A stretch of 64,000 nt of DNA from Flaccisagitta enflata (lineage: Eukaryota), in assembly GCA_965153355.1 (NCBI GenBank), contig OZ231126.1:26970001-27034000 (forward strand), written 5' to 3'. This document shows, one piece after another, positions 3,001-64,000 of this stretch (its first letter is position 1; every line of letters starts with the position of its first letter). Below the pieces are notes generated by a model that saw only the letters and a list, made by a program, of their open reading frames with translations, made no database searches and was not told the DNA's origin. The position numbers and the translations under genes are program-made.

Positions 3001-4934
3001 CGAAACCCCAGCGCCGCCGCACCCCACTTCTTCTTTGCTTTCCTTTATTACCTGAGCTAGCTCGCTGTTTTTTTCCAACAGATCGTCCTAGAAGACTGAA
3101 GTGCGGCCGATTCAACTCAAAGGAAAGCTTCCTCAAATTGCTCCACCTTCTGCCTCCTTGTGTTTTGAATTCAAACTGTCTGTGACTGTTCATCATGTCT
3201 GTACAGGTTCCTTGGTTACAGGCTGATATCGCTTGATGAATAGCCGTAGCCCCGATCACAACGAGAATCGAGATGCCTTGTTTGATGATGCCTTTGGCAA
3301 AAGTACGGCGCTCGCTCGGAAGGCGCCCGCACGCCGACGTTCACATGACCGTTCGCAAACGGCATAATCCCTTATCGAAACGCTTCGAGCTTTATGCTGA
3401 TGTCACCTGGTCCACAGCTGCAACATCTTCTCCACTCAGTGAGGACATTTAGACTCTGGACAGAGTGAAATCTCTATGACTGATTGCCCATGTGGCAATA
3501 CACCAGGAAGTCTAGAGGGTTTTGGGAAATCACTGAGGACAGATGTAACTTACGTGAAGAAAATAGATTTGTGTTGTGGCGGAAAGAAGGTATTTAATTT
3601 CTACAATACTGCTGGCGATATTTTTAAAAGCGACAGCACCTCTATAACTGGCTGTGTCCGTTGGTCGGTCGGTCGGGTAACGCATTCGTTCGACGATCCT
3701 CACGTCGCACCTTATTGGACTACTTGGCCTTGTTCATTGAAATCCAAACATCATTTATGTACCATGTATGAAAATCAATGTTTGACAGTTGGAGGGACCG
3801 GGCAGATGGGAGGGGGACCGGGCAGATGGGGGAGGTGGTCAAAGGCCACTCAGCCACGTTTTTTTTCATGAATATTTTGTACTCATTTCAAATCATAAGA
3901 TTTTACACTCAACTTGACCAACTAATTTCAAAGTAGTATTTTCATTTATCTACATTTTATAAATCAAGTGTATTCGGCGGTTCACTTAGGAAGCTGAGGA
4001 TGTCAAAAGCTTTTTTTTGTTAACTTCCATTTTATTGGTATCCATTTTTCATTTTACTGTCTTATTCCTTGTAGATTGAACTTTTACATTTTTGTCAATC
4101 CAATTCCTTTTGACCATTTTTTCATCTCTTGCCTGGAAACATTTTTTTACGATTTACACGTTTTATTTCTATCCTTGGTAAGATTTCAACTCTCCTCTTT
4201 CAATTACATACCATCTTATTTCTTTCGTGGTTTTCATTTTTCATTTCTCATATGATTTTGATTGTTGTCACTGTAAATTTTCAAATCCATGCATTTACCT
4301 CATTTTTCATCTTGTCATCTTGCCACTTCTGCTAATCATTTTTTGACCTCCAATTTTTTTTCAGTTCCACTACTGTTATTATTTCAAGTTTCTCTTTTGC
4401 ACTGTGGTATTCCTCTTTTATTTGCACGGCTCATTTAGCATTGTTTCTACCACTTGTTTCTCATCTCCTTTTTTTCTTTTTCTCATGGGATATGTACCCA
4501 CAGTTCAACAGTATCACGCGGTTTCCACTTTTTGTTTGTCAAGTGATATTGTATTATCATTTTTTCAAGTTTTCGTTTTGAGGTCGCGGACACAAATTTC
4601 CTTGTCGGTCGGTTGGTCTTTCTGTCGGTCCGTCTGTAACTTTTGCGAAATTTGGGCGGCTGTTTGCTTCACTGCCCCTGCCCTGGGGAAGTCTAAACTG
4701 CCTTGTTTGAAAACTGTGATACTCGATTTCGCGATTTCTCTCGATTTCTCTCTCGTGATCACTTTGTGGCCGCCTTTATTTTATACGTATACATGTAGTT
4801 TCTAGTGACTAATGAATTCATTTCTGAACGAGGTATAGTCCGCTAGAACGAGTTTAACCTTAAACCTTACCGTTCGTTATTTGTAAATTGGCATCTTGAC
4901 CATCTCTTTTACGTTTTGCATTATCTCTTTCAAG

Positions 4935-5978
4935 GACCACGCCGCCGCCGCCATCGCCGCGGCCGGCGTCCCTGTCTACGCGTGGAAGGGAATGACGGAC
5001 GAGGAGTACCTTTGGTGCATCGAGCAAACCATCTTCTTCCCAGACGGGCAACCCCTCAACATGATCCTCGACGACGGCGGCGACTTGACCAACCTCATCC
5101 ACACCAAATACCCCCACTTGCTCGATGGCATCTACGGCTGCTCCGAGGAGACCACCACGGGCGTCCACAATCTCTACAAGCTCCACAAGAAGGGACTTCT
5201 CAAGATCCCCGCCATCAACGTCAACGACTCCGTCACCAAATCCAAGTTTGACAACCTCTACGGCTGCCGGGAGTCGCTCGTCGATGGCATCAAGCGCGCC
5301 ACCGACATTATGATCGCCGGCAAGGTCGCCGTCGTCGCCGGATACGGTGACGTCGGCAAAGGCAGCGCTCAGGCTCTCCGCGCTTTCGGCGCCCGCGTCT
5401 TGGTCACGGAAATCGATCCCATCAACGCCCTGCAAGCCGCCATGGAAGGCTTCGAGGTTACCACCATGGACGAGGCCTGCAAGGAAGCTCGCATCTTTGT
5501 CACCACCACGGGCTGCTCCGGCATCATCGAGGGCCGCCATTTCGAACAAATGTTGGAAGACGCCATCGTCTGCAACATCGGACATTTCGACTGCGAGATC
5601 GACGCCGCCTGGCTGAACGACAACGCCGTCAAGAGTAACGTGAAGCCCCAAGTCGATCGCTACACCCTCAAAGACGGCAAACACATCATCCTCCTCGCCG
5701 AGGGCCGTCTGGTCAATCTCGGATGCGCCATGGGTCATCCCTCATTCGTCATGAGCAATTCCTTCGCCAATCAAGTCCTCGCCCAAATCGAACTCTGGAC
5801 CCGTCACGCCGAATACAAGGTCGGCGTCTACATGCTCCCCAAGAAGCTCGACGAGGAGGTCGCAGAAGCTCATTTGGAGCATCTCGGCGTCAAGATCACT
5901 ACTCTCACCAAGGACCAATCCGATTACTTGGGCATCCCGCAATTCGGACCTTACAAGCCCGACCACTACAGATATTAA
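4935..5978 (+). CDS. AHCY: S-adenosylhomocysteine hydrolase (adenosylhomocysteinase), long terminal exon; 5' exon(s) not found in the window
   Basis: Acceptor tttcaag|GAC at 4935, then 348 codons to TAA at 5976-5978. Family motifs present: [58 protein letters not shown] (NAD binding), [21 protein letters not shown] and C-terminal [12 protein letters not shown]-rich codon usage against an AT-rich background. Confidence 0.97.
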
Positions 5979-6751: not shown

Positions 6752-6957
6752 ATGGCAGATTTCGACTCTTGCAACAAAGTTGGACAACAAGACATTGAGT
6801 CTTTCCTCTTCACCTCCGAATCCGTTGGAGAAGGTTAGTTCAATATAGATTCATTTTGTCTGTCCCTTTGTCTGTTATCCGACTAATCTAGCGACTGTGT
6901 TAAATACACTGTTAGTCTGCTGTTTTCTGTCATGCGGTCTGACAAATGACGATGTTT

Positions 6958-7014
<57 letters not shown>

Positions 7015-10000
7015 CTTTCCTTCCCTACTTCCTTCCTTTCTTCCTTTCTTCGTTCCCTCCTTCACTCACTCACTGCCACTCAATTTCATCCTCTTTCTCA
7101 CTCGCTTACTCATTCTCTCACTGCCATTCAATTTCATCTTCCGTATTTACTTCGTTCCCCTTCACAGGTCATCCCGACAAGATCTGCGATCAAGTGTCTG
7201 ATGCCATCCTCGATGCTCACCTCAAACAAGACCCCAACGCCAAAGTCGCCTGCGAAACGGTCAGTTTTCTTCCTACCTTTTTTGCTTTTGAAACTTGAAA
7301 GAGGGGATTAGCTAGATCCTTTCAAAGTTGGTTTGATTCTTCGTTTTTGAAAACAAAATTTCCTCGCCTGGACAGTTTTTTTTTTGTTCCTTCAGAACCG
7401 ATAATCTAATCCCCTTACAGGTTTTGGCCGCAAAATACCTTGGTTTGAAAAAGAAAACTTCTGCGAAACCTTTTTGTTTATCAAAATATCAGTATAATTT
7501 GGCCTTAAAAGGATTTTATCTTCGTCCTTGAGGCCACTCACCCAGTTACAGTATACAATCCCTTGTCAGTGCACTTGGGGAGTAGAGAGAAGACGTACGT
7601 GAGTTTCATCGTTCCCAAAAAATTTTCCATCCTCGTTCTCTAATTTATCTAGACCTCAAGCCCTTGGACATGAAACAGTTGGCAGTTTTGAACTTTCTTC
7701 AGAATTTGTGAGACCATTAATAACCCTCGGGCGCTGCCAAAAGATCTCTGGTCGAACATTGATGAGTTTATACAACTACGCAAAAGACCTTGATATTCAT
7801 TCGGTTTGTCAGTCTGTCTGTTCCTATCCATTTTTATTCTTCAGCTGTTAGTCTGCCCAGTGTGCCTTTGGGTCTGTGCATGTCTTTTCGAATTTTATGG
7901 CGTTTATCTTTAAACTTGAGAGAAAAGTTCATCTTGGCAGAGTTCACCGTCTTTGACGTGGCAAAGTGGTAATTGTTTCAAGAATGCTCGAAGGTTGAGG
8001 ACAAAGTATGAGAGAGAATGAGAAAGGGTGAAAATGGAAAGCGCAAAAAGGAAGAATTGAGTATTTGACAGATTGAAAAGATGAACTTGTTAAAATGGCT
8101 GATCCTTCTTTGAATCTATGTTTCAACAAGGCCGGATACACGGCCAATACCAGTCGCGGACGGGTGGGCAGGGGCGGAAATGAGGTGCTGACGCTCCACT
8201 CGATCAGACACGTGATCAACCTGCCTGACTGTACTCGAATCCAATCTGACCAAATTAACGACGGACGGACAAAGTCTGTTAAAATGGCTGATCCTTCTTT
8301 GAATCTTTGTTTCAAAAAGTGGCATTATTATTACCTAATTAACAGTATACACAAGAAAAAAATCGCGTTTCATGCCCATTTTCGTTCCTCTGACGGTTCT
8401 GTCAACCCGAGATAATGAACTAAAGTCAAATCCAATTATCCCCAATTTGCATATCGCTAATTTCTTGTCCATGATGGCCTGGGGCCATCGAGGCTGCTAC
8501 TTAGTATGAGCTTTGTGTGCCGACTTATTTGATACTTATTTCGATATCCTTCTTTTCCCTTCTGATGCTCTCAGGTCGCCAAGACTGGTATGATCCTCGT
8601 CTGCGGAGAAATCACCTCCAAAGCCGTCGTCGACTATCAAAAAGTCATCCGCGACACCATCGAACATATCGGCTACGACGACTCCTCTAAAGGATTCGAC
8701 CATAAGACCTGCAACGTCTTGGTCGCCCTCGAACAACAGTCCCCCGATATCGCTCAAGGTGAGAGAAAAAGGCCTCTAGTCTAGTAGAAGATTTGAAATA
8801 CATAATCATCCTCTTGATCCTCATTATCGTCGTCGTTTTCATCATGTCACTCATCCTCTTCATCATCGTCCATATCCATTACTCATCATTATCCTCTTGT
8901 ATTTCATCATCTTCTTCATCATCATCATCGTCATCATCATCATTCTCTTTTCCTCATCCTCTTTTCCTCATCCTCTTCATCATCTTCCTCTTTATTATCC
9001 TCTTCATTATTGTCATCCTCTTCATTATCATAAACATCTTCGTCATCCTTTTCCTCCTTCATCGTCATCCTCCTCTGTCGTCTTCCTCCAATTACCGAAG
9101 CATTTTCATCTCTTTGCCATTTTACCTGATCATCATCATCATCATCATTATCTTCATCATTATCCCTCTCATAATCTTCCTCCTTTTTCCTTTCCATGAT
9201 AAACACCATCTTTTTCTCCTCTGTCGATTCACTTTTGGGGGTAGTCAACACTTGGGGGGTAATGGACACTTGCAGGGGGCAGTCAACACTTGTAGGGGAA
9301 AGTTGACAGTTGCCGGGGGCAGTCAAAATTTGTGGAAGGTAGTTGATACTTGCCGGGGGTAGTTGACTCAGGGGGTAGTGGGGGTGGTAGTTAACACTTT
9401 TGGGGGTAGTTAACACTTTTGGGGGTAGTCAACACTTGGGGGGTAGTGGACACTTGCAGGGGGTAGTCAACATTTCAGGGAGGTAGTCAAAACCTTATGA
9501 AGGTAGTTGACAATTGGGGGAAGACATTTATGTAGTTTACACTTTGGGGTAGACAGCAATTTGCAAGGGTAGGACGAAGTGGGGGTATTCGGCACTTTTG
9601 GGGGTAGTTGATATTTTCAGGGGTAATAAATATTTGTAGGGGGTAGTCAATATATGAGGGGGGTAGATAACACTTGCCGGGGGTAGTTGGCACTTGCAGG
9701 GGGTAGTCAACACTTGTGGGGGGTAGTCAAGGTTTGCGGGGGGTAGTGGACACTTAGGGGGGGTGGTAATCAACACTTGCAGGGGGTAGTTGACACTTGT
9801 GAGCGAGACTCTATACCAACATATACTTTCAATTTATAAAAAGTTCATTTCAGCAATTTACATGGCCTCCCTGTAGTAATTGAACTTCCTTTAGTTTGCT
9901 TCAGTCCTTAGTAATTTTCTACCTAGCAGTTTGTAAGCCTGCATTTTGAAAAAAATCACACCTTAGCATCCTATCAGTGATTAGCAAAAGTTGCGATTGT

Positions 10001-12174
10001 CGTTTTGTCCATAGACTGTTCTCTTTGAACATCTTTTTGTCTTCCTCCCACTTCTCAGGCGTGCACGTTGGTCGTGATGAGGATGAGACCGGAGCCGGAG
10101 ATCAGGGACTCATGTTCGGCTACGCCACGGACGAGACCGAGGAAGCCATGCCCCTCACCGTCGTCCTCGCTCACAAACTCAACCAGAGAATGTCCGAACT
10201 CAGACGCAACGGAACCTGCAAGTGGCTCAGACCAGATTCCAAGACTCAGGTGAGTTGGATATCTCAATGATAGGTTGATTAGGTTTTGAAAGATTAGATG
10301 ACTGGGAGTGAAGGATTGATTGGTTGGATATGAATGAATGGCTCATTGGGGAACTGAAGATATGCTGATAAGCGACGAGGTCCTTGTTGATTTTGATTGA
10401 TTGACTTGGTTAGACTGGCTTTGATTGATTGACTTGGTTGGATTGATTAACTGGCTTTGATTGATTGACTTGGTTTCTGGTTAGATTGATTGTGTTTGAT
10501 CGTTTTACTGGGTTTTGTTTGACTAATAGGGTTTGTTTTGGGGACTGTTTGATTGGCTGACTGGTTTGGATTGACTTAGTATGACTGATTGACTTGGTAT
10601 GATTGATTGATTGACTGACTTAGTTTGATTGACTGACCGAGTTTGATTGAATGATTGACTGGATTTGAATGAAAGTTTGACTAGATCTGCATGGACTAAC
10701 CAATTACTTATTTGTCAACCCATCTCGTAAAACTTCGTCTTGCCTTTCCTTGCCACTCCAGGTCACCTGCGAATACTCTTTCAAGGATGGTGCTTGCATC
10801 CCAAAGCGCGTGCACACCGTCGTCATCTCCGTTCAACACGACGAACACATCCAATTGGAGAACATGAGAGAGATCTTGATGAGCAGCGTGATTGTCCCCG
10901 TCATCCCCGCCAAGTACTTGGATGAGAACACCATCTACCACTTGCAGGTAAATGAACTGGCAAAAAATGTGTTTTTCTCCCCTGAATGCTTATTTTCTGT
11001 CTGATACGATGATTCCTTAGGGACAAGGTTGCTATAAGTCTATCTTGTTACGTTGTTTGCAACCTTGCCAGTTTGCCGGTTTGCCAACTTGTCTATCATT
11101 TTTGTGCCACTCTGTTTGCCATGGCACTCGGTCTGCCGTGCCACATGGCCATATGGCCTCTTTGTTTGCATCTCTACCATCCCGATGTTTGTTTTCCTGA
11201 GATTCTCCCAAAGTTCTTGACATTTTTTATTCACTTTTCAATTCAGCCTTCCGGCAAATTCATCATCGGCGGTCCCATGGGAGACGCCGGTTTGACAGGC
11301 CGCAAGATCATCGTCGACACTTACGGAGGATGGGGCGCCCACGGTGGCGGCGCTTTCTCCGGCAAGGACTTCACCAAAGTGGATCGTTCCGCCGCCTACG
11401 CCGCCCGCTGGGTCGCCAAATCCCTCGTCAAGGCCGGACTCTGCAGACGCGTCTTGGTTCAAATCGCCTACGCTATCGGTATCGCCGAGCCACTCTCCAT
11501 CACCGTCTTCAGGTTGGTTTTGCAACTCGCGTAGTTGTGTCTTGCCTATGTTGTAAGCATTCTGATGGTTGGTGCGATGCTGGTTTTTGTCCGGAATTCT
11601 GAACAAAATGATCGATTCCAGATGATCGAATCTTGCGTCTGGTTTTACTTTTTCTGTTTCTTCTCTCGTTTCCTGCATTTTAACTTTTGTTTCTAAATTC
11701 GTTTTCATCTGAGCACTTCTTGCTCTTGACTCCTCTGGCTCAACTTCCAGTTTGCTTACTTCCGCCGTTTGTTCCTGTCTCTACCTTTGCTTTTCCTTCC
11801 TCTGCTTCTTTGCTACTTCTGCATCTCTGCTTTCTCTGCTTCCTCTGCTCCTTTGCATTCTGTGCTATTTCGCTTCTCATGCAACTTTGCTTCCTCTCGC
11901 TTTTCTTTTGACTTCGCTTCTGCGCCATTTTATTCATCTTAGCATCGATGCCAGTTAACAATCGCATTTTTCCTCTCCCTTTTGCAGCTACGGTACGTCG
12001 ACAAAGAGCGAGCAAGAGCTTCTGGATATTGTCAAGAAGAACTTCGACCTCCGCCCAGGCAGAATCGTCAAGGACCTCCAATTGAAGAACCCCATCTACC
12101 AGAAGACCTCCGCTTACGGTCATTTCGGTCGCGACGGCTTCACGTGGGAAAACGCCAAGAAGCTCGCGTTTTAA
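6752..12174 (+). CDS. MAT: S-adenosylmethionine synthetase (methionine adenosyltransferase), complete, 7 exons, 395 aa
   Basis: Exons 6752-6833, 7168-7259, 8575-8758, 10059-10249, 10762-10947, 11247-11512, 11988-12174. All introns are GT-AG, phases are consistent, and the total is 1188 nt. Motifs: [83 protein letters not shown]. Confidence 0.97.
7396..7598 (+). promoter_or_regulatory. Candidate alternatively spliced poison (NMD) cassette exon inside MAT intron 2
   Basis: Two acceptors: a long T tract + ccttcag| at 7395, and ctaatccccttacag| at 7420. Consensus donor AC|GTGAGT at 7599. Both acceptor choices give an in-frame stop. The sequence is non-repetitive and rich in hairpins. Confidence 0.45.
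9235..9800. repeat. G-rich minisatellite (about 20-nt unit, GGGGGTAGTCAACACTTGC-like) in MAT intron 3
   Basis: Degenerate tandem copies of gggggtagt...acactt are directly visible. Confidence 0.85.
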
Positions 12175-20714: not shown

Positions 20715-24997
<4,283 letters not shown>

Positions 24998-25261: not shown

Positions 25262-25641
25262 GATTTTGAGAATAGAATCAGAGATAAAATGGTAAACGGG
25301 ATGAGTTTTCAAGTGATTTAAAGCATTTTCTGCGATGTTTTTCTTTCAACTGACAAAGTGACGGACGGACGGATGGACAAAGCCTCTTATAGAGTTATGT
25401 GTCCGCATCTAAAAACCGGAGAAGACAAAAAAGTGAATAGAAAAAGAAAGAAAGATGAAAAAACAGTTCATTGCTGAAAAAGGGTAGGGGGAGAAGGGGG
25501 GGGGGTGTAGGCGAAAAGCGTGCTCTCACATATTTCAACTTGAGCGTTACGAAACAACAACTGTCAAACCAACGTGACGGACGGACAAGGCAGAGTTACT
25601 TGTCAGCAAAGAAAATCTAGAATCTGTCTTTGTCAAAATAG

Positions 25642-26621
25642 GCATCTTCAACTCAAATTGGACAAACCATGCGCGAGCGCTTTGCCAATATGCTTCGAAG
25701 AATAAAGAAGAAGAGACATTGGGAGAAAAACCGGCATGAAATCTTTCGCTTGAACATTTTTCCCAACGAATTTGAGGCAGAGCCGGAGAGCGTCATCATC
25801 GATTATGGGTTTGATCGTAACACAAAGACTCGGAATTTGCGCACTCAAATTGGCGATCTTCAGCGTGATTTACAGACCATGGAGCAGGAATTGAAGCAAG
25901 TTTCGGAAGATAAAGAGAATGCAATGAAAGCGAAGGAAAAGGAAAGTCGGAAAGCGCGCATTTGTGAACAGAAAAACAAAGCTCTGTCCAATCAGATTGT
26001 TACTTTGGAGTCGGAAGTGGCGGCAAAGGCTACGCAGATTACCAACAGCCTGCAAGAGAACCAACAACTTCGCCTCAGCAACCAGGAACTACAACAGCAA
26101 CAAAAACAGGCGTCAAAACCACTTGGATACAAACGCCTCTCTGAATGTGGACCAGACGCAGTAACGAAAACACGTCACGCCTACCGGGAGAAATATAAAG
26201 AAGACGTCAACAATTATGGACAAAATCGAGGGTTGACCCTCGACAAGTTGGTTCTAAAGAATACAGAAAATGGGGAGCCGTTCGTAGTCAACATGGAAAA
26301 GCCGCCAACATATGAAAATTTGGATGAGTACGGAAAGAAAATGGTTGAGGAACATTCTCGTTGGAAAGATGGCGAAGTTGTAAGCGATCGTTCCTATGCC
26401 AAATTAAGAAAGGTTGCAGATGTACCCGCCGCCTCGCATGTCAAGTCTTTTGAAAAAGAGACGAATCAAAAAATTGGGAATGCAACTATGGTAATTTCAA
26501 TACCGTAGTAGAAGTCAGTTTATCCCATTTGCACCAAAACCATTAGCATAGTGTCATTTGTTGACTATATAAACCATAGGAACAATACACAAACACACAC
26601 AAAAACACACACAAACACACA

Positions 26622-26666
<45 letters not shown>

Positions 26667-26714
26667 TCGACCGCGCAAACGAGCGCGCACGCACATGGAC
26701 ACACTTGGTTTCAT

Positions 26715-26798
<84 letters not shown>

Positions 26799-27223
26799 TA
26801 AGGTCGCCGGAGAAAGTCGTGGCGCTCGTGTCCCTCTAGACGTGGAGGCAAAGAAGATGATCAATCACCAGATCCGTATGGGTGAAATCAAACACGGCGA
26901 CACAGTGACGTTGAAGCTAGCGTCGGATGGAACTGCTCTCACGCGCAAAGACACAGCTACTCCAACTACCCTGACGCTTAGCAGTAGCACAAAGACTTTA
27001 CAGCTTGCAACGATTGCTATTGTGCTTGCAGATGAAACCTACGAAGTGAGTTTTAGTCGCAAAATTTTCAACATAGAAGCCTTAAGGTACAAAAAAACCT
27101 CAAAGGAAATTTGATCGTATTCAGCCAATAAGTAGTCAAGTGTTAGTGGGCAGGGGCAGCAATGCAGGTAGGCAGGGGCTCTAATCATCATTTTGCTACA
27201 TCCAAAATGTATTACCCACCATA

Positions 27224-27255
<32 letters not shown>

Positions 27256-30012
27256 CTTCCAACAATCCAACAAACACAGGCATATCTACATTTGTCAACT
27301 GTTATTGATCTTTGCTGTGTAAGCGGTCTAGTTATTTAATTTTGAATTTTGAGTCCATTTGCTGTTATTTTTGAATTGACGGCGACAACTGCACTGACCC
27401 GCATTGATTCATAGTTCACGTAAGAATGATATTCCGTCGCAAATGAAAACCTGAAATGCATTTTTTTCATTATTCTTGACTCTTTCAAATTATTATTTGA
27501 AACATGCCTGCTTGCTTGCAGGTGGGCAGTGCATTGATAGAAGAGTCTATTCAAGCATTTTGACTGGGGCAGTGATGCAAAAATTCTCCTATGATCAACC
27601 AACCTACCAACAGACATAGCAGGTTATAGAGTCGCTTACACACAGCAATAAACAATATTCCTTTGTACGTTTACACATCCATTCCTGCAGCACATGGAAG
27701 GAAGCCTAAAAACCACATTCGAGGAATTTCGGAAGTTTGCCGCGGAGAACCGGGAATATACTGACGAAGAAACAGGAGTCAAAATCAAGATCATCCCTCT
27801 CGTTGGTGGTGAGAAATCTTCGTGGTTTATCAGATAGTTGAGCCCCACTTAATAATAGATTTCAAGTAACCAGGCCCGGCCAGAGGGGAGGTCACCCCTG
27901 TCTAAGATGGGGAGGCCCCCTAAAATAAGAAAATAAAAAGAAAGAAGAAAAAAGATTGGAAAAAAAAAGAAAAAAAGAAAATAAGATAAAAAGTGAATAG
28001 ATAAAAAAGAGAAAAAAAAATGAACAAAAAAAATGAAGAAACAAAAAATACTATAAACAAGGCTGGAAACACAGTTACCCTAGTCACGTGTGTGTGGGCA
28101 GGGATAGTTATTGAGTTACTAGAGCATTTGGGCAGGTGCAATTAGGCCAAATACCACAAAAACATAAAACCAGTAAAATAGGAACCAACCAACGAACGGA
28201 CATAGCGGGGTGTAGAGTCGCGTATCATGGGACTAAAAACAAATAAAAGGAAAGTTAAGTGATTGATAGTCGCAAAAGTGTAAGATGGTCAGCGGTACCC
28301 GTTGCCCTTATGTGAGTATATGTGGGTGTGTGATGGTGAAAGGGGCAGTGGCCCCAAAGGGGCCAATGACCTATGCTTAGTAACTTTTGAATCTCTAGGC
28401 AGGAATTTTAGCATAAATAGTCGCAAAAGCGTTAGATGGTCAGCGGTACCCGTTGCCCCTATGTGAGTGTATGTGGGTATGAGATTGTTAGAGCGGCAGC
28501 GGCCCCGAAGGAGCCGATGACCTATGCTGTTTTTATTTGAGCCTCAAGGCTGGGATTAGGGCCTGTAGGCTGGAATTGGGGCCTCAAGGCTGGAATTGGG
28601 GCCTCAAGGCTGAGATTTGAGCCTCAAGGCTGGGATTTGAGCCTTGAGGCTGGGATTTGAGCCTCTAGACTAGGATTTGGGCCTCTAGACTAGGATTTGG
28701 GCCTCCAGACTAGGATTTGAGCCTCAAGGCTGGGATTTGAGCCTCAAGGCTGGGATTTGAGCCTCAAGGCTGGAATTTGGGCCTTGAGGCTGGGATTTGA
28801 GCCTTCAAGCTGGGATTAGAGCCTCCAGGGCCTAGAGGCTGATTTTGGGCGTGAAGGCCAGGGGGGTACGGAGAAGGAGGAGGAGGAGAAGGAGAACTTT
28901 CTCCTGTGTGAAAGCATAGGTCATCGGCCCCTTTGGGGCCGCTGCCCAAAAATGGGATTTGAGCCATGAGGCTGTAATTTGAGCCTTAAGGTGGTGATTT
29001 AAGCCTAAAGATGGTGATTTGAGCCTTAAGATGGTGATTTGGGCCTTGAAGCGGTGATTTGAGCCTTGAGGTGGTGATTTGAGTCTCAAGACTGTGCTCT
29101 GAGCCAAGATGCCAAGATTTAAGCCAAGATGCTGGGATTTGAGCCTCGAGGCTGGGATTTGAGGCTTTAAGCTGGGATTTGAGCCTCGAAGCTGGGATGT
29201 AAGCCTCGAGGCTAGGATATGAGCTTTGAGGGGGGTGGACAGAGGAGGAGAATAAGAAGAAAGAAAAGAAGGAGAAATTTCCCCTATGTGTGAAAGCATA
29301 GGTCATTGGCCCTTTTGGGGCCGCTGCCCAAAAAAGGAAGGTTTCGGTCGGTGTAAATAGTTTCATTCATAAGTGAATAACTTTTTTTTTCCCGCAACAT
29401 AACTCAGGCATAGATGTTTTTTATGTATTTTTTTATATCTTGTTACATGCGTCATCGCATCTCTATAAGAGGGTCTGTCCATCCGTCCATCCGTTGATCC
29501 GTCCGTCCATCCGTCGGTCTGTCCATCCATCTGTCAGTCCGTTACGCCTCTTCTAATATCACGCAGATGACGCATTGAGTTGCCCGCCTGGGCTTGTTAT
29601 GTGTAAAACATAAATACCAGGTTGCAAGTCCTGAAAAAGAAAAGCTGAAAACTGAAGATTTGTTTACATGTTGTATAAGTAAACAGCCCAGGTTCAATTG
29701 CCCCAATATACCGTGCAGGTGACTTGAAAGGATTGCTTCTAACGTATGGGCTCTCTCAAGCAACGGCTTCCTACCCTTGCATATTTTGTGAGGCCGACAA
29801 GGACGATTTCATATCAAGTAAGACAAGAATATGTGACAAAGAAGAGAGAGAGAGAGAGAGAGAGAGAAAGATAGAAAGAAAGAAAGAGCGAACAAGGCAA
29901 AATGACAGAAATGACTGCTATCTTACTGTCTGTCTGTGACTGTTTAGTCTATCCAAGTGTTTCTGTCTATTGCCATCTCATTGTATGTCATCGTCTTGTA
30001 TTTTCTCTTATT

Positions 30013-30093
<81 letters not shown>

Positions 30094-31221
30094 AATCCTA
30101 CAGTAATAAACAACGAGGACGACGCGTGGTTGAAGTACAACAGACTCAACAGCAAAATCAATGATGACGACAAAGTCGTGAGTGCAAGGACGCGCGGAAG
30201 CATCGGTCGAGAAGCCGGCAAGCTCACCGGAAAGATGAAATTCAGCGTCAAGCGTACGCCGATTCCTACGATTCCGCTTAACTCGGAAGTGCCACTGATC
30301 TACGGTGTGCCACCCGATACTCTTCATGCTCGTATGCGCGTAGGAGACAAATTGATCAATGAACTTACCACCGCCGTCGCTGAATACACAGGCGACAAAC
30401 TTGCTAAACCATTAGAAGGACTAATTCGGGGAATAAATGTACCTTTTACGACATACACGTCATGCAAGACGGGCAAGACCGAACACAGCTCCCTAACAGG
30501 AGTGGCTTGGAAACATCTGCTTCGTGGAATTGGACCAGCTTTGAGGAGATCAGATGGCGTTCTCCAAGAGGCGAAGAAAGTCAAGTTTGCAGAACTTTTT
30601 GAAGGCTTCTCAAACCTCTTAGAATTCGTTGCGGCTTGCGCACCTTCAGACGCCGACGCGGTGGCTGAAATGGCGCGTGAATGGGCACGGCGCTACACGA
30701 AGATGAACTTCTCCGTTACACCGTATGTTCATATGGTAGCAACGCATTTCCCAATGAGCGTAAAACTTTTTGGCGGCTTAAACAAATTAAACGGCGAATG
30801 GGTAGAAGCCGCCAATGACAGCATCAAAAGGTTGCATTTACAGCGTACAGCACGTAAGTGTCCTCGGCAGACTCTTATGATGCAACGTCGCAATGAGCAT
30901 CACATCATGAACAAGAAAGAAGAGGAGCATAATGCAGAAAAATCGAGGAAGCGGAAGATACCTGCGCCAAATCCGGAATGGAGTAGTCAAAGAAAGGAGC
31001 AAGAGAAACGACGGAGACAGCAGGAGGAAGATGAAAGAGTCGCAGCAACTTCTGCTCAGGCATCTCCCTACGACCATCTCTCCAGCAAAGAATTGCGTGA
31101 TGTCATTTATGAAAAGACGGGAAAGCGCACGCGGAAACAAAATGAACCAACACTTCGGGATGTACTGGTTTCCATCGATGTTTATGAAAATCCGACCAGA
31201 GGTAAAAACATTGCCAAATGA
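25642..31221 (+). CDS. RAG1/Transib/Chapaev-related DDE transposase, intact spliced ORF (799 aa from ATG 25669)
   Basis: Exons 25642 (ATG 25669)-26490, 26803-27045, 27691-27808, 29719-29817, 30104-31221. All introns are GT-AG, phases are consistent and there are no internal stops. Motifs are collinear with the RAG1 core: KLASDG (first D, 26926), GGDLK (second D, 29721), YPCIFC (Zn CxxC), PPDTLH, VTPYVHMVATH (Zn HxxxxH), GGLNKLNGEWVEAAN (E, 30805). N-terminal coiled coil and basic C-terminal tail. Confidence 0.88.
28540..29225. repeat. 20-bp minisatellite arrays (GAGCCTCAAGGCTGGGATTT)n within dispersed-repeat copies in the long transposase intron
   Basis: Two tandem arrays, flanked by a recurring gggcagcggcccc...gatgacctatgc motif also seen near 18885. 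Confidence 0.85.
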
Positions 31222-34067
31222 ATTTCACTCAGAAGCGACGGATCGTATTGATCATTTTTTGCTGGAGTTGATTGCTGACAATTTTTTTTTCTTCAGACCT
31301 GGTTCACTCTGAAGATGGGGAGTGAAGCGCTGACGCGCTAACGTGGAAACAAGTGACAATTTTCAAACTACAAAGTAATTGAGAAGAAAAAAATACTCAG
31401 CAGCTGCATCACCAATATCGCTTTGCAACTAAAGATATGATTCTATCCGTGGTGCATTAGTATAGGCTGGTTAATGTCTAAAATTAGATCACACGAAATG
31501 CGTTCTTTGATTCAAATGATTTGTTATCAGATGCTCGTTGTCGTTCTTTCAATGAATTAAAGAGAATATCATTTGTACTGATTTTGATTAATCAAAAGAA
31601 TTTTGGAGCTGTCACATGGGGCGCTTATGTATCGTATTCGAAATTGTACATCATGAGGTTGCTAAGAAATTGTAACTTATCGCCCCATATCTGAGCTTCA
31701 AGCTTCTTTGTTTCTGAGGCTAATTTGCATAATGCGGTTCATAATTACTACATCACAAGATAGAGTATAAATAGTAAAAACATATTTTTTACAACCCTGG
31801 CATTTGATTTAAGGTCGATGTTACCTATGAATTTTGGAATTGACTGAAAACTAGAAAAAATGGAGCACTAACTGGTTGTTCAGGGGCGAGTAAGGTGTTT
31901 GGCATGAGAAAGTTTAGAAAAAAAGACTAGTTTATCACGGTATACCAACATTGAGCGAGGGCAAAACCATTAGACTTTAATCCATATGCCATACAGTTAC
32001 TGGTAACATACTTTTTTTATGGTGCAAAGACGAAATATTGTGATGAAAATCATTCAAAGGGCATTGACAAACAAAAAGCATGAAATAGATGGCGGTTAAA
32101 TGATCCGATCCCAATCAATACTTCCAACAGAGCGTCGTTAATGGTGTCGACCGTTTTGAGAGAGTGTTGTCAACTAGACGAAAGCTAATCGGGGGTGCGT
32201 AAGCGGCACATGAAAGCTGAAGTCTTGAATTTGGTTGCGCATGTCCGTTTTGACGGCGTTTTGTCGATGCAAAAGCAAATTACGAGTCGGCAGTAAACCT
32301 CTTCAAATCGCGTCAGTGAGCTTCGATGAAATTCTTCCATCGCTCCATTTCGCCTCTTCTCTTCTTTTGCTTCTGCCGGGTTTCGATAGCCTGACCGATC
32401 CAACTGTATGAACCGGGATACCCCGCGGTACGCAACACTTCCCACACGCTCCAATCCTCAGGGCCTAAAATGCGTTGGAGGGGAACGTGGGTGATTGAGC
32501 GAAAACTGATTGGAAGAGTGACAAAGTGGGGATCAGGGTCCTGATGTAATTATTACTGCCATGACACGCGAACGACGCGACGGTCTGACAGCTGTTAGAG
32601 CGATTTTACACCAGATTCGTACGATCCATGGCGATGATGTTCATCAAAGCTAGCGTCTTCACTTTTTAGTTGCGGACACGCAACTCTATAAGAGGCTTTG
32701 TCCGTCCGTCGGTCCGTTGGTCCGTCTATCATGGTGATCGAGTTAGTAATTAGAAAAACATGCAATTTCGATACATTTTGTATATGTTTGAGTGTTGGGG
32801 GTGAGTTGGCGTGTGGATAGGGGTTGGAAGCCTCTGCCCACCTGTCCGCAATGATATTGCGACCCCGCGTCACTTGTTTTTAGATGCGTCCTCGCATCTC
32901 TATAAGAGGGTCTGTCCCTTGGTCGGTCTGTCTGTCTGAATGTCTGAGTGTCACGCGAAAATTTTAAAATGCGATTTTCGAGGTTTTCTCTTCATTTCTC
33001 TTCATGTATCTTCTTGTCTCTTATAGTTCTATTGTCTCTATCATCTCTTTTGTCTCTTTTGTCTCTTGTATGTCTCTTATGTCTCCTATATGTCTCTTAT
33101 ATCTCTTATGTCTGTTATTTCTCTCATGTATCTTAGGTCTGTTATGTCTCTTATTTTTCCTATGTATCTTAGGTCTCTTAGGTCTCTTATGTCTCTTTGT
33201 CTCTTTTGTCTCCCAAACATCTCCCATATGTCTCTTATGTCTCCTATATCTCTCATATGTCTCTTATGTCTCGTATATCTCTTATGTCTCTTATATCTCT
33301 TATATCTCTTATATCTCTTATATCTCTAATATCACTTAGGTCTCTTATGTCTCTTATGTCTCTTATGTCTCTTCATGTCTCTATATGTCTCTTATGTCTC
33401 CTCATGTTTCTTCATGTCTCTCCATATCTCTCCATGTCTCTCCAAGTCCCTTCATATCTCCACGTAAGGATGCGGCGGGGGGGGTGTGGGGATGCGTGGG
33501 GATAGGGGAGGGAGGCGTGGGGAGGTGTGGGGGGAGGCGTTGGGGGGAGGGGTGGGGAGGCGTGGGGCGAGGGGTGGGGAGGCGTGGGGGGAGGGGTGGG
33601 GAGGAGTGGGGGGGAGGCGTGGGGGGAGGGGTGGAGAGGCGTGGGGGGGAAGGGGGGGAAAGGGGGGGTGGAGAGGCGTGGGGGGAGCATGAAATCAGTT
33701 TATGTTTTTCTCTTTATCTCGATATCTCTGAATCTTTATATTTTCATATTATTGTATCTTAATATCTTTATATCTTAATAATTTGTATGATAATATCTTA
33801 CTTCTAAAGAGGACGCATCTATTGGACATCTCTTGGCCTTGTTCAATTATAGCCTCACGCACTGAGGGACCGAAGTACCAACAGCACTGTGCTTTTAAAA
33901 AAATTTTCAGTGGAAGGTCTTATAACTGTGGGTTTTTCTGCATTTTTGAGCAGTGTTGGGATGTAAGAGAATGTAACTAGCAAAAAAAAAAAAAATCATT
34001 CCCCGAGCGCTTTTTGAGTAATCTTCAAAATAGAAAAAAATTGAACCTATTTGTAATGCAGATTCTA

Positions 34068-56517: not shown

Positions 56518-57578
56518 TTCTCTCTTTCTCTCAACCTCCACTCACATAAACAAAATGCATTTAAAACGCTCATTTTCACACTTATCGACTCGCGTTCACC
56601 GACTGACGGACCAACGGACAGACAAAGCCTCATATAGAGTTGCGTGTCCGCAACTAAAAAAGAATTATTTTCATCCTGAAACTACATCTGATTTCTGATA
56701 AAGTGCAACCAACCGCATTATAGGAACTCAATTTATTTAGAAATGATGGGCAAAACAAGATTGCGTCATCCTTTCTCAAAATATCTCTTCAAAAGCATAT
56801 GAAGATAATTTAGGCAGTTATGGTTGTTCACAAGATACATACAAAGAATCTTATGGATCAAATTGATGGCAAAGGTCACTGGGGTATTTGTACAGAAGCT
56901 GTGAGCTCAAAATGCCAAAAAAAAACCAAAAAAAACAAAAAGGGGACCGACCAACCAACCAACTAACCAATCAACCAACGGATAGACGGACAAAGCATAG
57001 CAAAGCATGGCACGCAACTATTACTATCTTCGCCAAAAGAAACGCAGCAGTTGTCCATAATAGTATCTACTTTGAAAGAGTGCTGCTCTTAAACAAATAA
57101 AGCTACAGACCCTAGATTAGACCCATTTTTAAGGTCTAACGCAAACCTTCAAAATGGGACCAATCTGGGCTCTGTAACTTTTTTTGATGCTATTTTCAAA
57201 AACTGCTGCATTTCTTTCGGCGAAGATGGTACATTCTTTCTCAATAAAAGCCAAAAGCAAACTGCATGCATGTATGCTTACAAAAAGTTGTGTTATAGTA
57301 GCGATGTCACTGCATTGCATCGGTCCATAGAATTTGGTGGAAAAAGTGATGTTATGTGTTCATTTCATGTACTCCACGATTATGAAATTGTGATTTTACC
57401 TGAGATGATAGAGCCAAGCTATTGGTTACAATAGGTCAATGAGCTAGTTGTTGTCTCCGGCAGAAATACTAATCAATTGACCAATAGGCAAGCAAAAGGG
57501 GATTCTTGTAAGACAGAATTCTAACTCCCAAAAAAAAATACAGAGAAGAGAATTAGAGAAAGAAAGAGAGAGCGAGAG

Positions 57579-62357: not shown

Positions 62358-63125
62358 ATGACTGACGCACAACTCATTAAATTCCTCCATCTCCAACGAT
62401 AGACATACGTATTGCATCTTACAAAAATGACTTCACCTAAGAATCGCCAAAAAAAGGAGATAATCGATCTTGTAAAAAAAAGGAAACCCGCGAACAGACA
62501 TTAGTCGCTTTTTTGCCATCGCCTCTAGTACACTCTTTGACTTCATCAAAAATGTCTTTCGGTCTGATTATCTTTTTAATTGCGGATACGCAACTCTTTA
62601 GGAGAGGCTTTGTCCGTCCGTCCGTTGGTCCATTGGTCTGTTGGTCCATCGGTCCTTAACGATCGAGTCTAAAAGTGTTGTAATGCGCATTTATGATGCT
62701 GCAGTCATGATTGTCTTTGTTTGCGAGTGAGCATGGGATGAGAGAGGGTATGTATGGGGGTTGTATGCCCCTGCCCACTGGTCCGCAATGGTATTGTAAA
62801 CCTGCGTCGCTTGTTATCAGCCTATGGGGATTCGTTTGAATGTCAGTCTTTCTTACTGTTTTTCTATCTGTCTTTCATCCTGTCTTTCTGTCAGTCTGTC
62901 ATTCTATCATTCTTTTCATTCTGTACTAAGTTATACCTATTTGTTTTTGTTGCTTCTCACATTATCTTTTTGTTAGAAGATGTGTGGTGTATTACTCCGT
63001 CAATACTTCGGTTATTCTTTGCTTAATCATGATCAAGAATAGTCAAATTGGCAACACCGGAATTTGGCACAACCGGAAAAAAAACAGTTAGTCCCTTGAG
63101 ATCCGTTATTGCGGGGTTCCACTGT

Positions 63126-63780
63126 ATATCTTTCAGAGTATTCGGTAGACTATTCCATTGCTTGATAGCCGTAAATGCGAAGCTACTAGGTGAAAGAGAT
63201 AGTTCCCGTGACAGTTGGAAATTGTGGTTACTACCGCTTGTATCGTGAGAGTGGATAGTAGAGATAGACCGAAAATTTGGGAGCAAATAAGTTGGAGCCA
63301 GATTACGCCAAATACGAAAGAAGTGCGACATTCTGAAATATTTTACACGATCAGAAATAGACAACCAGGACAATTCCTTCAAATGCTTCCCATCAACATG
63401 ACCCCGAAAATCCATGCCATAAATGAAACGTATCATCTTCCGCTGTATGACATTTAGTCGTTCCTTCAATGCTACAGTGAGCCTGCCATGCCAAGAACTA
63501 CAGTAATAATCAATACTAGGCTGGATAAGAGAAGGCACAAAGAGTCTTTCTTGACTTTGCATCCAAGAAACTCGAACAGCGATAGAGATTAGCAAGTTTT
63601 CCCGCACATGCTTTCATAAGACTACCTGCATGTGCCAATCCATCAAGATGAGAATCTAACATTGCACCAAGATATTTAACGCTAGAAGTGCGCACAACAA
63701 GTGTCCCATCGCAAAAGACCTGAAAATTTTCCACCCCCCTCAATTTTCTCTTTGAACCAAAGAGTAGGGAAGTCAACTTG
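63126..63780 (-). mobile_element. 5'-truncated, frameshifted non-LTR retrotransposon (CR1/L2-group) ORF2 C-terminal fragment
   Basis: Motifs VKYLGAMLDSHL, SLIQPSIDYYCSSW, LNVIQRKMIRFI, LKELSWLSISDR and QWNSLP, split across two frames (ORFs 63516- and 63023-). Confidence 0.88.
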
Positions 63781-64000
63781 GGTTGGTTCCTCGAAAGTGC
63801 GAGAGAAAAGGCTATGTCGGAATTTTTTCCATGCATAAGAATAGATCCCATGCAACAAATATGGAAGAATATTGTCCAAATGCACTGAATTTCATTCATT
63901 TTTGGCCAAAATCATGTCTGGGTGACTTTTTTCTTCAAAAAAATTGTGCGAAAAATCTAAGAAATAGGGAAGCTTAGAAGAAAGGGTTATTATGGCTCAA

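Follow-up and report, generated by a model that had tools for sequence, protein, structure and literature searches.

We analyzed a 64,000-nucleotide stretch of the Flaccisagitta enflata genome (GenBank assembly GCA_965153355.1, contig OZ231126.1, positions 26,970,001 to 27,034,000 of the forward strand; hereafter the window), in which an initial annotation had described an intact gene for a RAG1-like transposase. RAG1 is the textbook example of a transposase turned host recombinase, and the usual classification assigns its known relatives to Transib, RAG1-like/ProtoRAG or Chapaev. This analysis revealed an intact eukaryotic gene with five exons at positions 25669-31221 (+) of the window. The predicted fold places its product, with high confidence, among the DDE enzymes of the RAG1/Transib/Chapaev group, as what appears to be a new variant. 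When the exons at 25669-26490, 26803-27045, 27691-27808, 29719-29817 and 30104-31221 (all +) were joined, they formed a frame of 2400 nt without an internal stop, encoding 799 amino acids (aa) followed by TGA, and all four intron borders were GT..AG. A one-base shift at two of these borders introduced 20 stops, indicating that the open frame depends on the exact junctions. In the alignment with uninterrupted relatives of the protein, junctions 1 to 3 showed no indel, and junction 4 showed a 4-residue insertion. The uninterrupted 799-aa open reading frame (ORF) that had been proposed for this locus was thus confirmed. Its start had been placed at 25642, where the first ORF begins when read from stop to stop; the actual ATG is at 25669. 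A tblastn search of the window with the joined protein matched the five exons and no other place in the 64 kb.

Exon 1 (25669-26490, +) encodes residues 1-274, from the ATG at 25669 to the GT at 26491; it contains a coiled coil and the region ahead of the core, and it aligns with the relatives from residue 57 on. Exon 2 (26803-27045, +) encodes residues 275-355, including D316 (codon 26926-26928) in the motif ASDG, and exon 3 (27691-27808, +) encodes residues 356-394 and the first base of codon 395. Residues 395-427 are encoded by exon 4 (29719-29817, +), which carries D396 (29721-29723) in GGDLK and the putative zinc cysteines C415 (29778-29780) and C418 (29787-29789) in PCIFC. Exon 5 (30104-31221, +) supplies residues 428-799 and the stop codon, with H502 at 30325-30327, H637 at 30730-30732, H642 at 30745-30747 and E662 at 30805-30807. 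A missing upstream coding exon, hinted at by the longer N termini of the relatives, was rejected, as a tblastn search over 12-27 kb of the window with the first 160 residues of relatives of at least 700 aa gave a best E value of 0.38.

Protein family and conserved residues

At a cutoff of E ≤ 1e-3, an exhaustive HMMER search with the exon-5 core yielded 133 proteins, each representing a cluster at 50% identity; 37 of them reached E ≤ 1e-10 and 13 reached E ≤ 1e-30. The closer relatives were 37-91% identical and all short, and 21 long ones (714-863 aa) were about 30% identical. Against P0031, a full-length relative, residues 57-762 of the joined protein aligned with residues 103-809 (E = 5.6e-38). 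This near end-to-end alignment with the long relatives indicates a common architecture, consisting of a coiled coil, the core, a basic linker and a C-terminal helix pair. Database names of the members were restricted to "uncharacterized protein" (sea urchin Lytechinus pictus) and one mis-named sea-cucumber protein. In a word-indexed search, no longer relatives of exon 5 were found among 5410 candidates, and the relatives of near-exon-5 length were six unnamed fragments. A metagenome scan with a pattern derived from the clade to which the window copy belongs (see below) returned 145 pattern matches and no relative, and two viral-contig scans returned no family member. The gene belongs to an unnamed, unannotated family that combines a coiled coil, a RAG1-like core and a SAP domain. 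The initial annotation had raised the possibility of a distinct lineage, which is plausible given the 133 clusters, an architecture of their own and scores below the threshold of every Pfam model.

Public metagenome contigs contained five distinct copies of the family (L001-L005) among seven loci, 43-61% identical to P0031. These copies were mostly uninterrupted and four were near full-length; L001 at least is a single ORF. The contigs of four of the five carry one assembly prefix, which points to several old lineages of the family in one sample. The wider family is likewise mostly uninterrupted, as in L001-L004.

All six motifs listed in the initial annotation were present in the joined protein, and in the same order: ASDG (D316), GGDLK (D396), PCIFC (C415 and C418), DTLH (H502), TPYVHMVATH (H637 and H642) and WVEAAN (E662). 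Among the 21 long relatives, the columns D-G, D-x-K, C-x-x-C, L-H and T-x-Y-x-H-x4-H were invariant, and E-K-x-N-D was nearly so; in ASDG, the D and G were invariant in 21/21. The window protein was identical at 32 of the 39 columns conserved in at least 90% of these full-length relatives. It retained D316, D396, K398, C415, C418, H502, H637, H642 and E662, so that every putative catalytic and zinc-binding residue is among the identical positions. In the alignment of the clade of the window copy, H502 was kept in 15/15 of the rows that cover it, H637 in 20/20, H642 in 21/21 and E662 in 19/20.

Similarity to RAG1 in sequence and predicted fold

We searched the sequences of the PDB with profiles of the family. 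With the profile of the 21 long relatives, 30 sequences were listed at E ≤ 10; the best 16 were all RAG1 or RAG1L (2.3e-9 to 2e-4), and HzTransib was absent. With a 148-row family profile, the best 16 of 21 matches were again RAG1 or RAG1L (5.4e-11 to 2.5e-8), and the 17th was HzTransib at E = 0.078. The family columns fell on RAG1 at GYDEK for the second D, YICTLC for CxxC, LDALH for D(2)H, YLHKTLAH for HxxxxH and GNES for E, segments that we take to hold mouse D708, C727, C730, H937, H942 and E962. The spacings D396-C415 (19) and H642-E662 (20) presumably equal those of D708-C727 and H942-E962 in the mouse protein. The Pfam model RAG1 (PF12940) matched 1 of the 21 long relatives (E = 0.0063) and 9 of a set of 35 relatives (best E = 0.0079), always below threshold; with 10/56 relatives, it was the most frequent Pfam match among the matches listed. 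It had no match in the window exons at E ≤ 10, and the newer split RAG1 domain models were not among the matches listed in the scans of the window or of the relatives. A language-model look-up of exon 5 of the window led to the RAG1 ZnH2, ZnC2 and C-terminal clusters, and 7 of the ten best named matches were in that clan.

The predicted fold pointed in the same direction. P0031 was modelled in full by AlphaFold2 on the 148-row alignment, and the fold match of the window's own protein covers exon 5. The P0031 model had a predicted local distance difference test score (pLDDT) of 88.8 and a predicted template modelling score of 0.67. In Foldseek, ranks 1-48 were all RAG1, BbRAG1L or HzTransib (best E = 1.7e-12), and rank 49 was Hermes at 9e-4. 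A second aligner superposed residues 285-752 of the model on RAG1 459-1008 with a Z score of 26.0 and a root mean square deviation (rmsd) of 3.6 Å over 427 residues. The Z scores were 22.4 for BbRAG1L and 21.7 for HzTransib, and the next family, Hermes, reached 9.4. The model of window exon 5 (pLDDT 92.1) matched RAG1 737-1008 in the second aligner with a Z score of 13.8 and an rmsd of 3.5 Å over 236 residues; only RAG1-type chains occupied ranks 1-31, and the next unrelated chain scored 8.0. A structural comparison with RAG1 and Transib had been set beforehand as a possible refutation of the family call. Both P0031 and exon 5 matched that fold.

Several observations weigh against placing the window protein here. 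Its own sequence had no relevant Pfam match (five exon translations, E ≤ 10), and phmmer with exon 5 against the PDB gave two chance-level matches only (E = 0.6). An exon-5 profile of the clade of the window copy (8 rows) gave 3 PDB matches, none of which was RAG1-type. The sequence link of the window copy therefore runs via the wider family, while its fold link is direct. In Foldseek, exon 5 by itself had no match at E ≤ 0.001 (best E = 5.9e-3). In addition, the equivalence of D316 with the first aspartate of RAG1 rests on its invariance and on its place in the first predicted RNase H strand, as the printed sequence alignment of the family with RAG1 begins after D316.

Weighing both sides, we assign the predicted product, with high confidence at the fold level, to the DDE nucleases of the RAG1/Transib superfamily. 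The initially proposed core, comprising a D-D-E triad together with a CxxC...HxxxxH zinc site, is backed by the profile-to-sequence search and by the fold. The description "RAG1-like" is appropriate at the superfamily level. It does not extend to membership in the RAG1/RAG1L family, as the PF12940 matches stay below threshold and the N-terminal zinc finger is missing, and the gene is not RAG1 or RAG1L proper.

By homology, the core would span approximately residues 220-700 and follow the RAG1 domain order, with a dimerisation/DNA-binding region, a pre-RNase H region, the RNase H domain, a C2/H2 zinc module and a C-terminal domain. The putative acidic triad would consist of D316, D396 and E662, the zinc ligands of C415, C418, H637 and H642, and H502 would be the D(2)H histidine. 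A dimer of the protein would bind DNA and cut it by two-metal chemistry of the RNase H type. Like RAG1 and Transib, the enzyme may first nick the DNA and then form a hairpin.

Accessory regions and comparison with known families

The initial annotation had described a coiled coil in place of the zinc finger of RAG1 or Chapaev. In agreement with this, the first 300 residues contain two cysteines only, the Pfam matches of exon 1 were exclusively of the coiled-coil type (all sub-threshold), and residues 50-148 (25816-26112, +) were predicted to form a parallel, in-register homodimer with an interface in heptad pattern. The pair prediction for exon 1, made independently of our family alignment, scored 0.48, compared to 0.00 for the best of 3 controls; at least 73% of the contacts were common to the runs, and the partner pLDDT was at least 56. 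The mark used for this score was reached by 21/30 proteins solved as one-chain pairs and by 0/23 single chains. Among eukaryotic proteins, these figures were 17/29 pairs and 0/30 single chains, and 1/7 for pairs without an older solved relative. The prediction supports a coiled coil at residues 50-148 that would pair two subunits in parallel. A coiled coil of about 100 residues thus appears to stand where RAG1 has its N-terminal zinc finger, and it probably joins two subunits in parallel.

Past the core, the protein would continue with a basic linker and end in a SAP-like, two-helix DNA-binding tail. This tail corresponds to 31069-31176 (+), approximately residues 750-785, and has two helices in the model (exon-5 residues 327-338 and 347-361). 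It aligns over the SAP domain of the relative P0043. Pfam SAP (PF02037) was matched by 2 of the 21 long relatives and 4 of the other 35, that is, by 6/56 among the matches listed (best E = 5.5e-10). The assignment is weakened by the result that neither the window tail nor six close relatives matched PF02037 at E ≤ 10. A literature search pairing Transib with the SAP domain found nothing, and another that combined RAG1-like, echinoderm and coiled-coil found nothing relevant.

We compared the protein with the three established groups. It resembles RAG1 and RAG1L (mouse and zebrafish RAG1; BbRAG1L of the amphioxus ProtoRAG) in the fold over RAG1 459-1008 and in the aligned second D, CxxC, D(2)H, HxxxxH and E. 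It differs from them in that identity reaches only 12-16% in the structural alignments, and in having the coiled coil and SAP-like tail instead of an N-terminal zinc finger or RING. Since the structural match of P0031 begins at RAG1 459, the nonamer-binding domain of RAG1 lies outside the match. Inspection by eye of the 31 non-repetitive ORFs of at least 85 aa between 12 and 46 kb revealed no RAG2-like protein (kelch plus PHD), although a split gene would escape this inspection, and a Pfam scan of three flanking ORFs for such a partner gave no match.

HzTransib (Helicoverpa zea) is similar in having a single-gene RAG1-like core, with the superposition on P0031 covering chain residues 21-483. 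Transib transposases are described, in the portions of two sources that deal with them, as having no RAG1-type N-terminal zinc finger (PMC4411706; 10.64898/2026.01.24.700457), and the window protein has none either. In contrast, the family profile placed HzTransib far behind RAG1 (0.078 versus 5.4e-11, as given above). The window copy also differs from canonical Transib in its four introns, coiled coil and SAP-like tail, and no CAC-type ends with a 5-bp duplication were found for it.

The relation to Chapaev, which likewise occurs in animals, required closer consideration. Excerpts of PMC4079192 present C(2)C, LH and H(4)H as motifs characteristic of Chapaev transposases and describe some Chapaev3 families with two coding exons. 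PCIFC, DTLH and HMVATH of the window protein fit these motifs, and so does RAG1, such that the motifs do not discriminate between the groups. Part of PMC4411706 draws Chapaev and Chapaev3 as clades of the Transib superfamily, and part of PMC3985635 says that DUF1280 is the Pfam counterpart of Chapaev transposases and assigns it to the same group of RNase H-like enzymes as RAG1. According to the same excerpts, the marks of Chapaev transposases are the Chapa zinc finger and a match to DUF1280 (PMC4411706, PMC3985635). The window protein, with its two cysteines in the first 300 residues, has no Chapa zinc-finger domain, and no CAC...GTG ends with a 3-4-bp duplication were found; this separation from Chapaev and Chapaev3 is drawn from described features.

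It could nonetheless be argued that the family is a Chapaev-type (CMC) lineage in which the Chapa zinc finger was lost, rather than a branch closer to RAG1/Transib. The motifs and the published groupings just cited would fit such an origin, and since no Chapaev/CMC structure is among the PDB matches, RAG1 might be the best match in any case. A language-model look-up of P0031 also returned, in first place, a cluster with DUF1280 on 51% of its members (score 0.90, 192/256 features). However, only 2 of the ten best matches were in the family of that first match, which the tool rates as "probably wrong", and the corresponding look-up of exon 5 led to the RAG1 clusters. We rejected the DUF1280/Chapaev lead as it found no confirmation in the Pfam scans of the relatives. 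Neither the window exons (E ≤ 10) nor the 21 or the 35 relatives had DUF1280 (PF06918) among the matches listed, which for the relatives comprise the first 25 families and reach approximately E 0.06-0.08; PF12940 was the most frequent match listed, if below threshold. Together with the N terminus, which is not cysteine-rich as that of Chapa-type proteins is, these results make a Chapaev-type origin the less likely reading.

Resident gene or mobile element

To place the window copy within the family, we built a FastTree phylogeny of the exon-5 region from the 85 of 149 rows with at least 170 residues in that region. The window copy fell into a clade of 18 rows with a local support of 97 and a stem of 0.73. 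All 18 members of this clade were shorter than 400 aa, compared to 32/67 other rows of at least 600 aa. At least 12 of the short clade relatives start within approximately 20 residues of the start of exon 5, and none of them reaches the CxxC motif, which in the joined protein precedes that start by about 10 residues. The simplest reading of this coincidence is that an intron at the position of intron 4 is common to the whole clade.

In agreement with the initial annotation, the window yielded no terminal inverted repeats that belong to the gene. Long inverted repeats were rejected as ends, as they consist of CT/GA microsatellites. An inverted pair of 55 nt that surrounds the gene (25361-25415 and 32663-32717) was rejected because it belongs to a dispersed repeat, of which the window contains at least 12 copies. 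A search for Transib-type CAC...GTG ends over 12.0-25.7 kb and 31.2-45.0 kb of the window gave a single pair with a 5-bp duplication (TTGTG), at 20981 and 39430, in which 12/16 and 25/40 first bases match. We rejected this pair as well, as its right arm lies inside a repeat resembling a short interspersed nuclear element (SINE) that was seen 14 times. The L001-L004 contigs, in which the flanks measure 0.4-3 kb, showed no convincing flanking inverted repeats, and all four gave 0 candidates for CAC...GTG with a 3-5-bp duplication (shuffles averaged 0.02-0.12).

These results slightly favor, with a probability of roughly 0.55, a long-resident gene that selection has kept, its product being a transposase that became domesticated or stationary, over an element that is mobile at present. 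We lean this way because of the clade with its common intron, the kept residues, the clean exons, the lack of ends and the housekeeping genes upstream. There are points on the opposite side. Short contigs could account in part for the short ORFs of the clade; P0001, a 91%-identical fragment found elsewhere, could be a second copy; and the diversity of the wider family looks transposon-like. Moreover, introns common to copies also occur in true transposons, as in the two-exon Chapaev3 families described in a section of PMC4079192. The same observations feed the competing explanation, for which there is a serious though less than even chance: that the gene encodes the transposase of a cut-and-paste element that is, or until recently was, mobile and has ends that are short, diverged, far off or unlike CAC...GTG. 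A large family of 133 clusters and the five distinct, mostly uninterrupted metagenome copies, four of them under one assembly prefix, would fit such an element, and the full set of catalytic residues, which an active transposase requires, is retained. The lack of flanking inverted repeats speaks against mobility, since the one pair around the gene is a dispersed repeat and the lone CAC...GTG candidate has an arm in the SINE-like repeat. The contigs of four relatives likewise lacked CAC...GTG candidates, although within short flanks, and the introns of the window copy are loaded with later insertions, yet its 2.4 kb of coding sequence is unbroken. A dead relic that has no present function, and in which the frame stayed open by chance, would suit the repeat-rich neighborhood. 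We consider it very improbable, as 799 codons are open over five exons with four canonical introns, 32/39 of the columns conserved in the family are retained, every catalytic and zinc residue among them, and these residues are kept throughout the clade.

If the gene is indeed a long-resident one, a bolder proposal can be made, which we regard as doubtful at present. The intron-bearing clade may stem from a RAG1-like transposase that was domesticated a second time, independently and outside the jawed vertebrates, and that has neither a RAG2 partner nor the zinc finger of RAG1. In this proposal, the product would be a catalytically competent recombinase, dimerised by its coiled coil and kept to cut and rejoin host DNA at defined sites. 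Irrespective of this proposal, a sizeable unannotated family has come to light that combines a full RAG1 core with other accessory parts, namely a coiled coil and a SAP-type tail, and that by profile score is nearer to RAG1/RAG1L than to HzTransib, the one structurally solved Transib. Its intron-split clade, which keeps every catalytic residue, is a place to test for repeated host uptake of RAG1-type enzymes, and the family allows one to ask which accessory domains can stand in for RAG2 and the N-terminal zinc finger. Should the family correspond to a group already catalogued in Repbase, what remains is a known transposase in a well-preserved copy.

Introns, repeats and neighboring genes

The four introns carry microsatellites, minisatellites and short dispersed repeats, and the exons are clean, in line with the initial description of repeat-laden introns beside an open coding sequence. 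Small word shares (0.05-0.11) appeared in sequencing runs labelled as marine or seawater metagenome; given the wealth of microsatellites in this stretch, we infer neither a habitat nor a taxon from them. Intron 1 (26491-26802, +; 312 nt) contains (AC)40 and (TC)39. Intron 2 (27046-27690, +; 645 nt) contains (AGAC)8 and pieces of the dispersed SINE-like repeat. Intron 3 (27809-29718, +; 1910 nt) is the longest, with A-rich arrays, two 20-nt minisatellite arrays and inverted repeats of 34-36 nt, and intron 4 (29818-30103, +; 286 nt) carries (AG)n and (CT)39. Between 28343 and 29329 in intron 3, the 34-36-nt inverted repeats, which are 88-94% complementary, bracket the minisatellite arrays, and this unit occurs twice; it resembles a small non-autonomous element that contains a tandem array in its interior.

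The dispersed repeat of approximately 55 nt is rich in GACGGAC-type units and has a CTAAAAA end. It is present in at least 12 copies in the window, in both orientations, including those at 25361-25415, 32663-32717, 56604-56660, 62573-62625 and 29461-29494. It seems to be the tail of the SINE-like family, the internal motif of which, GGGCAGGGGCAG, occurs 14 times in the window. In the relative P0005, the N terminus of the ORF, DGQTDRPTDKQT, reads like a translated GACnGAC repeat of the kind present in the window introns. The organism from which P0005 derives may therefore carry the same repeat family beside the same exon.

Elsewhere, at the very end of the window (63023-63911, -), a pair of overlapping ORFs (196 and 131 aa) looks protein-like and had no Pfam family at E ≤ 0.001. 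At 21879-22792 (+), 3 kb ahead of the gene, two overlapping frames (233 and 293 aa) with a high content of Ser, Thr and Pro continue into a microsatellite; the 293-aa frame had no Pfam match. Further upstream, 4887-5978 (+) is a large exon of S-adenosylhomocysteine hydrolase (Pfam AdoHcyase, E = 6.3e-86), and 6849-7298 and 11013-11534 (+) are exons of S-adenosylmethionine synthetase (N-terminal domain, E = 4.3e-16; C-terminal domain, E = 9.5e-45). Two methyl-cycle enzymes are thus encoded side by side on one strand, 14-20 kb upstream of the gene.

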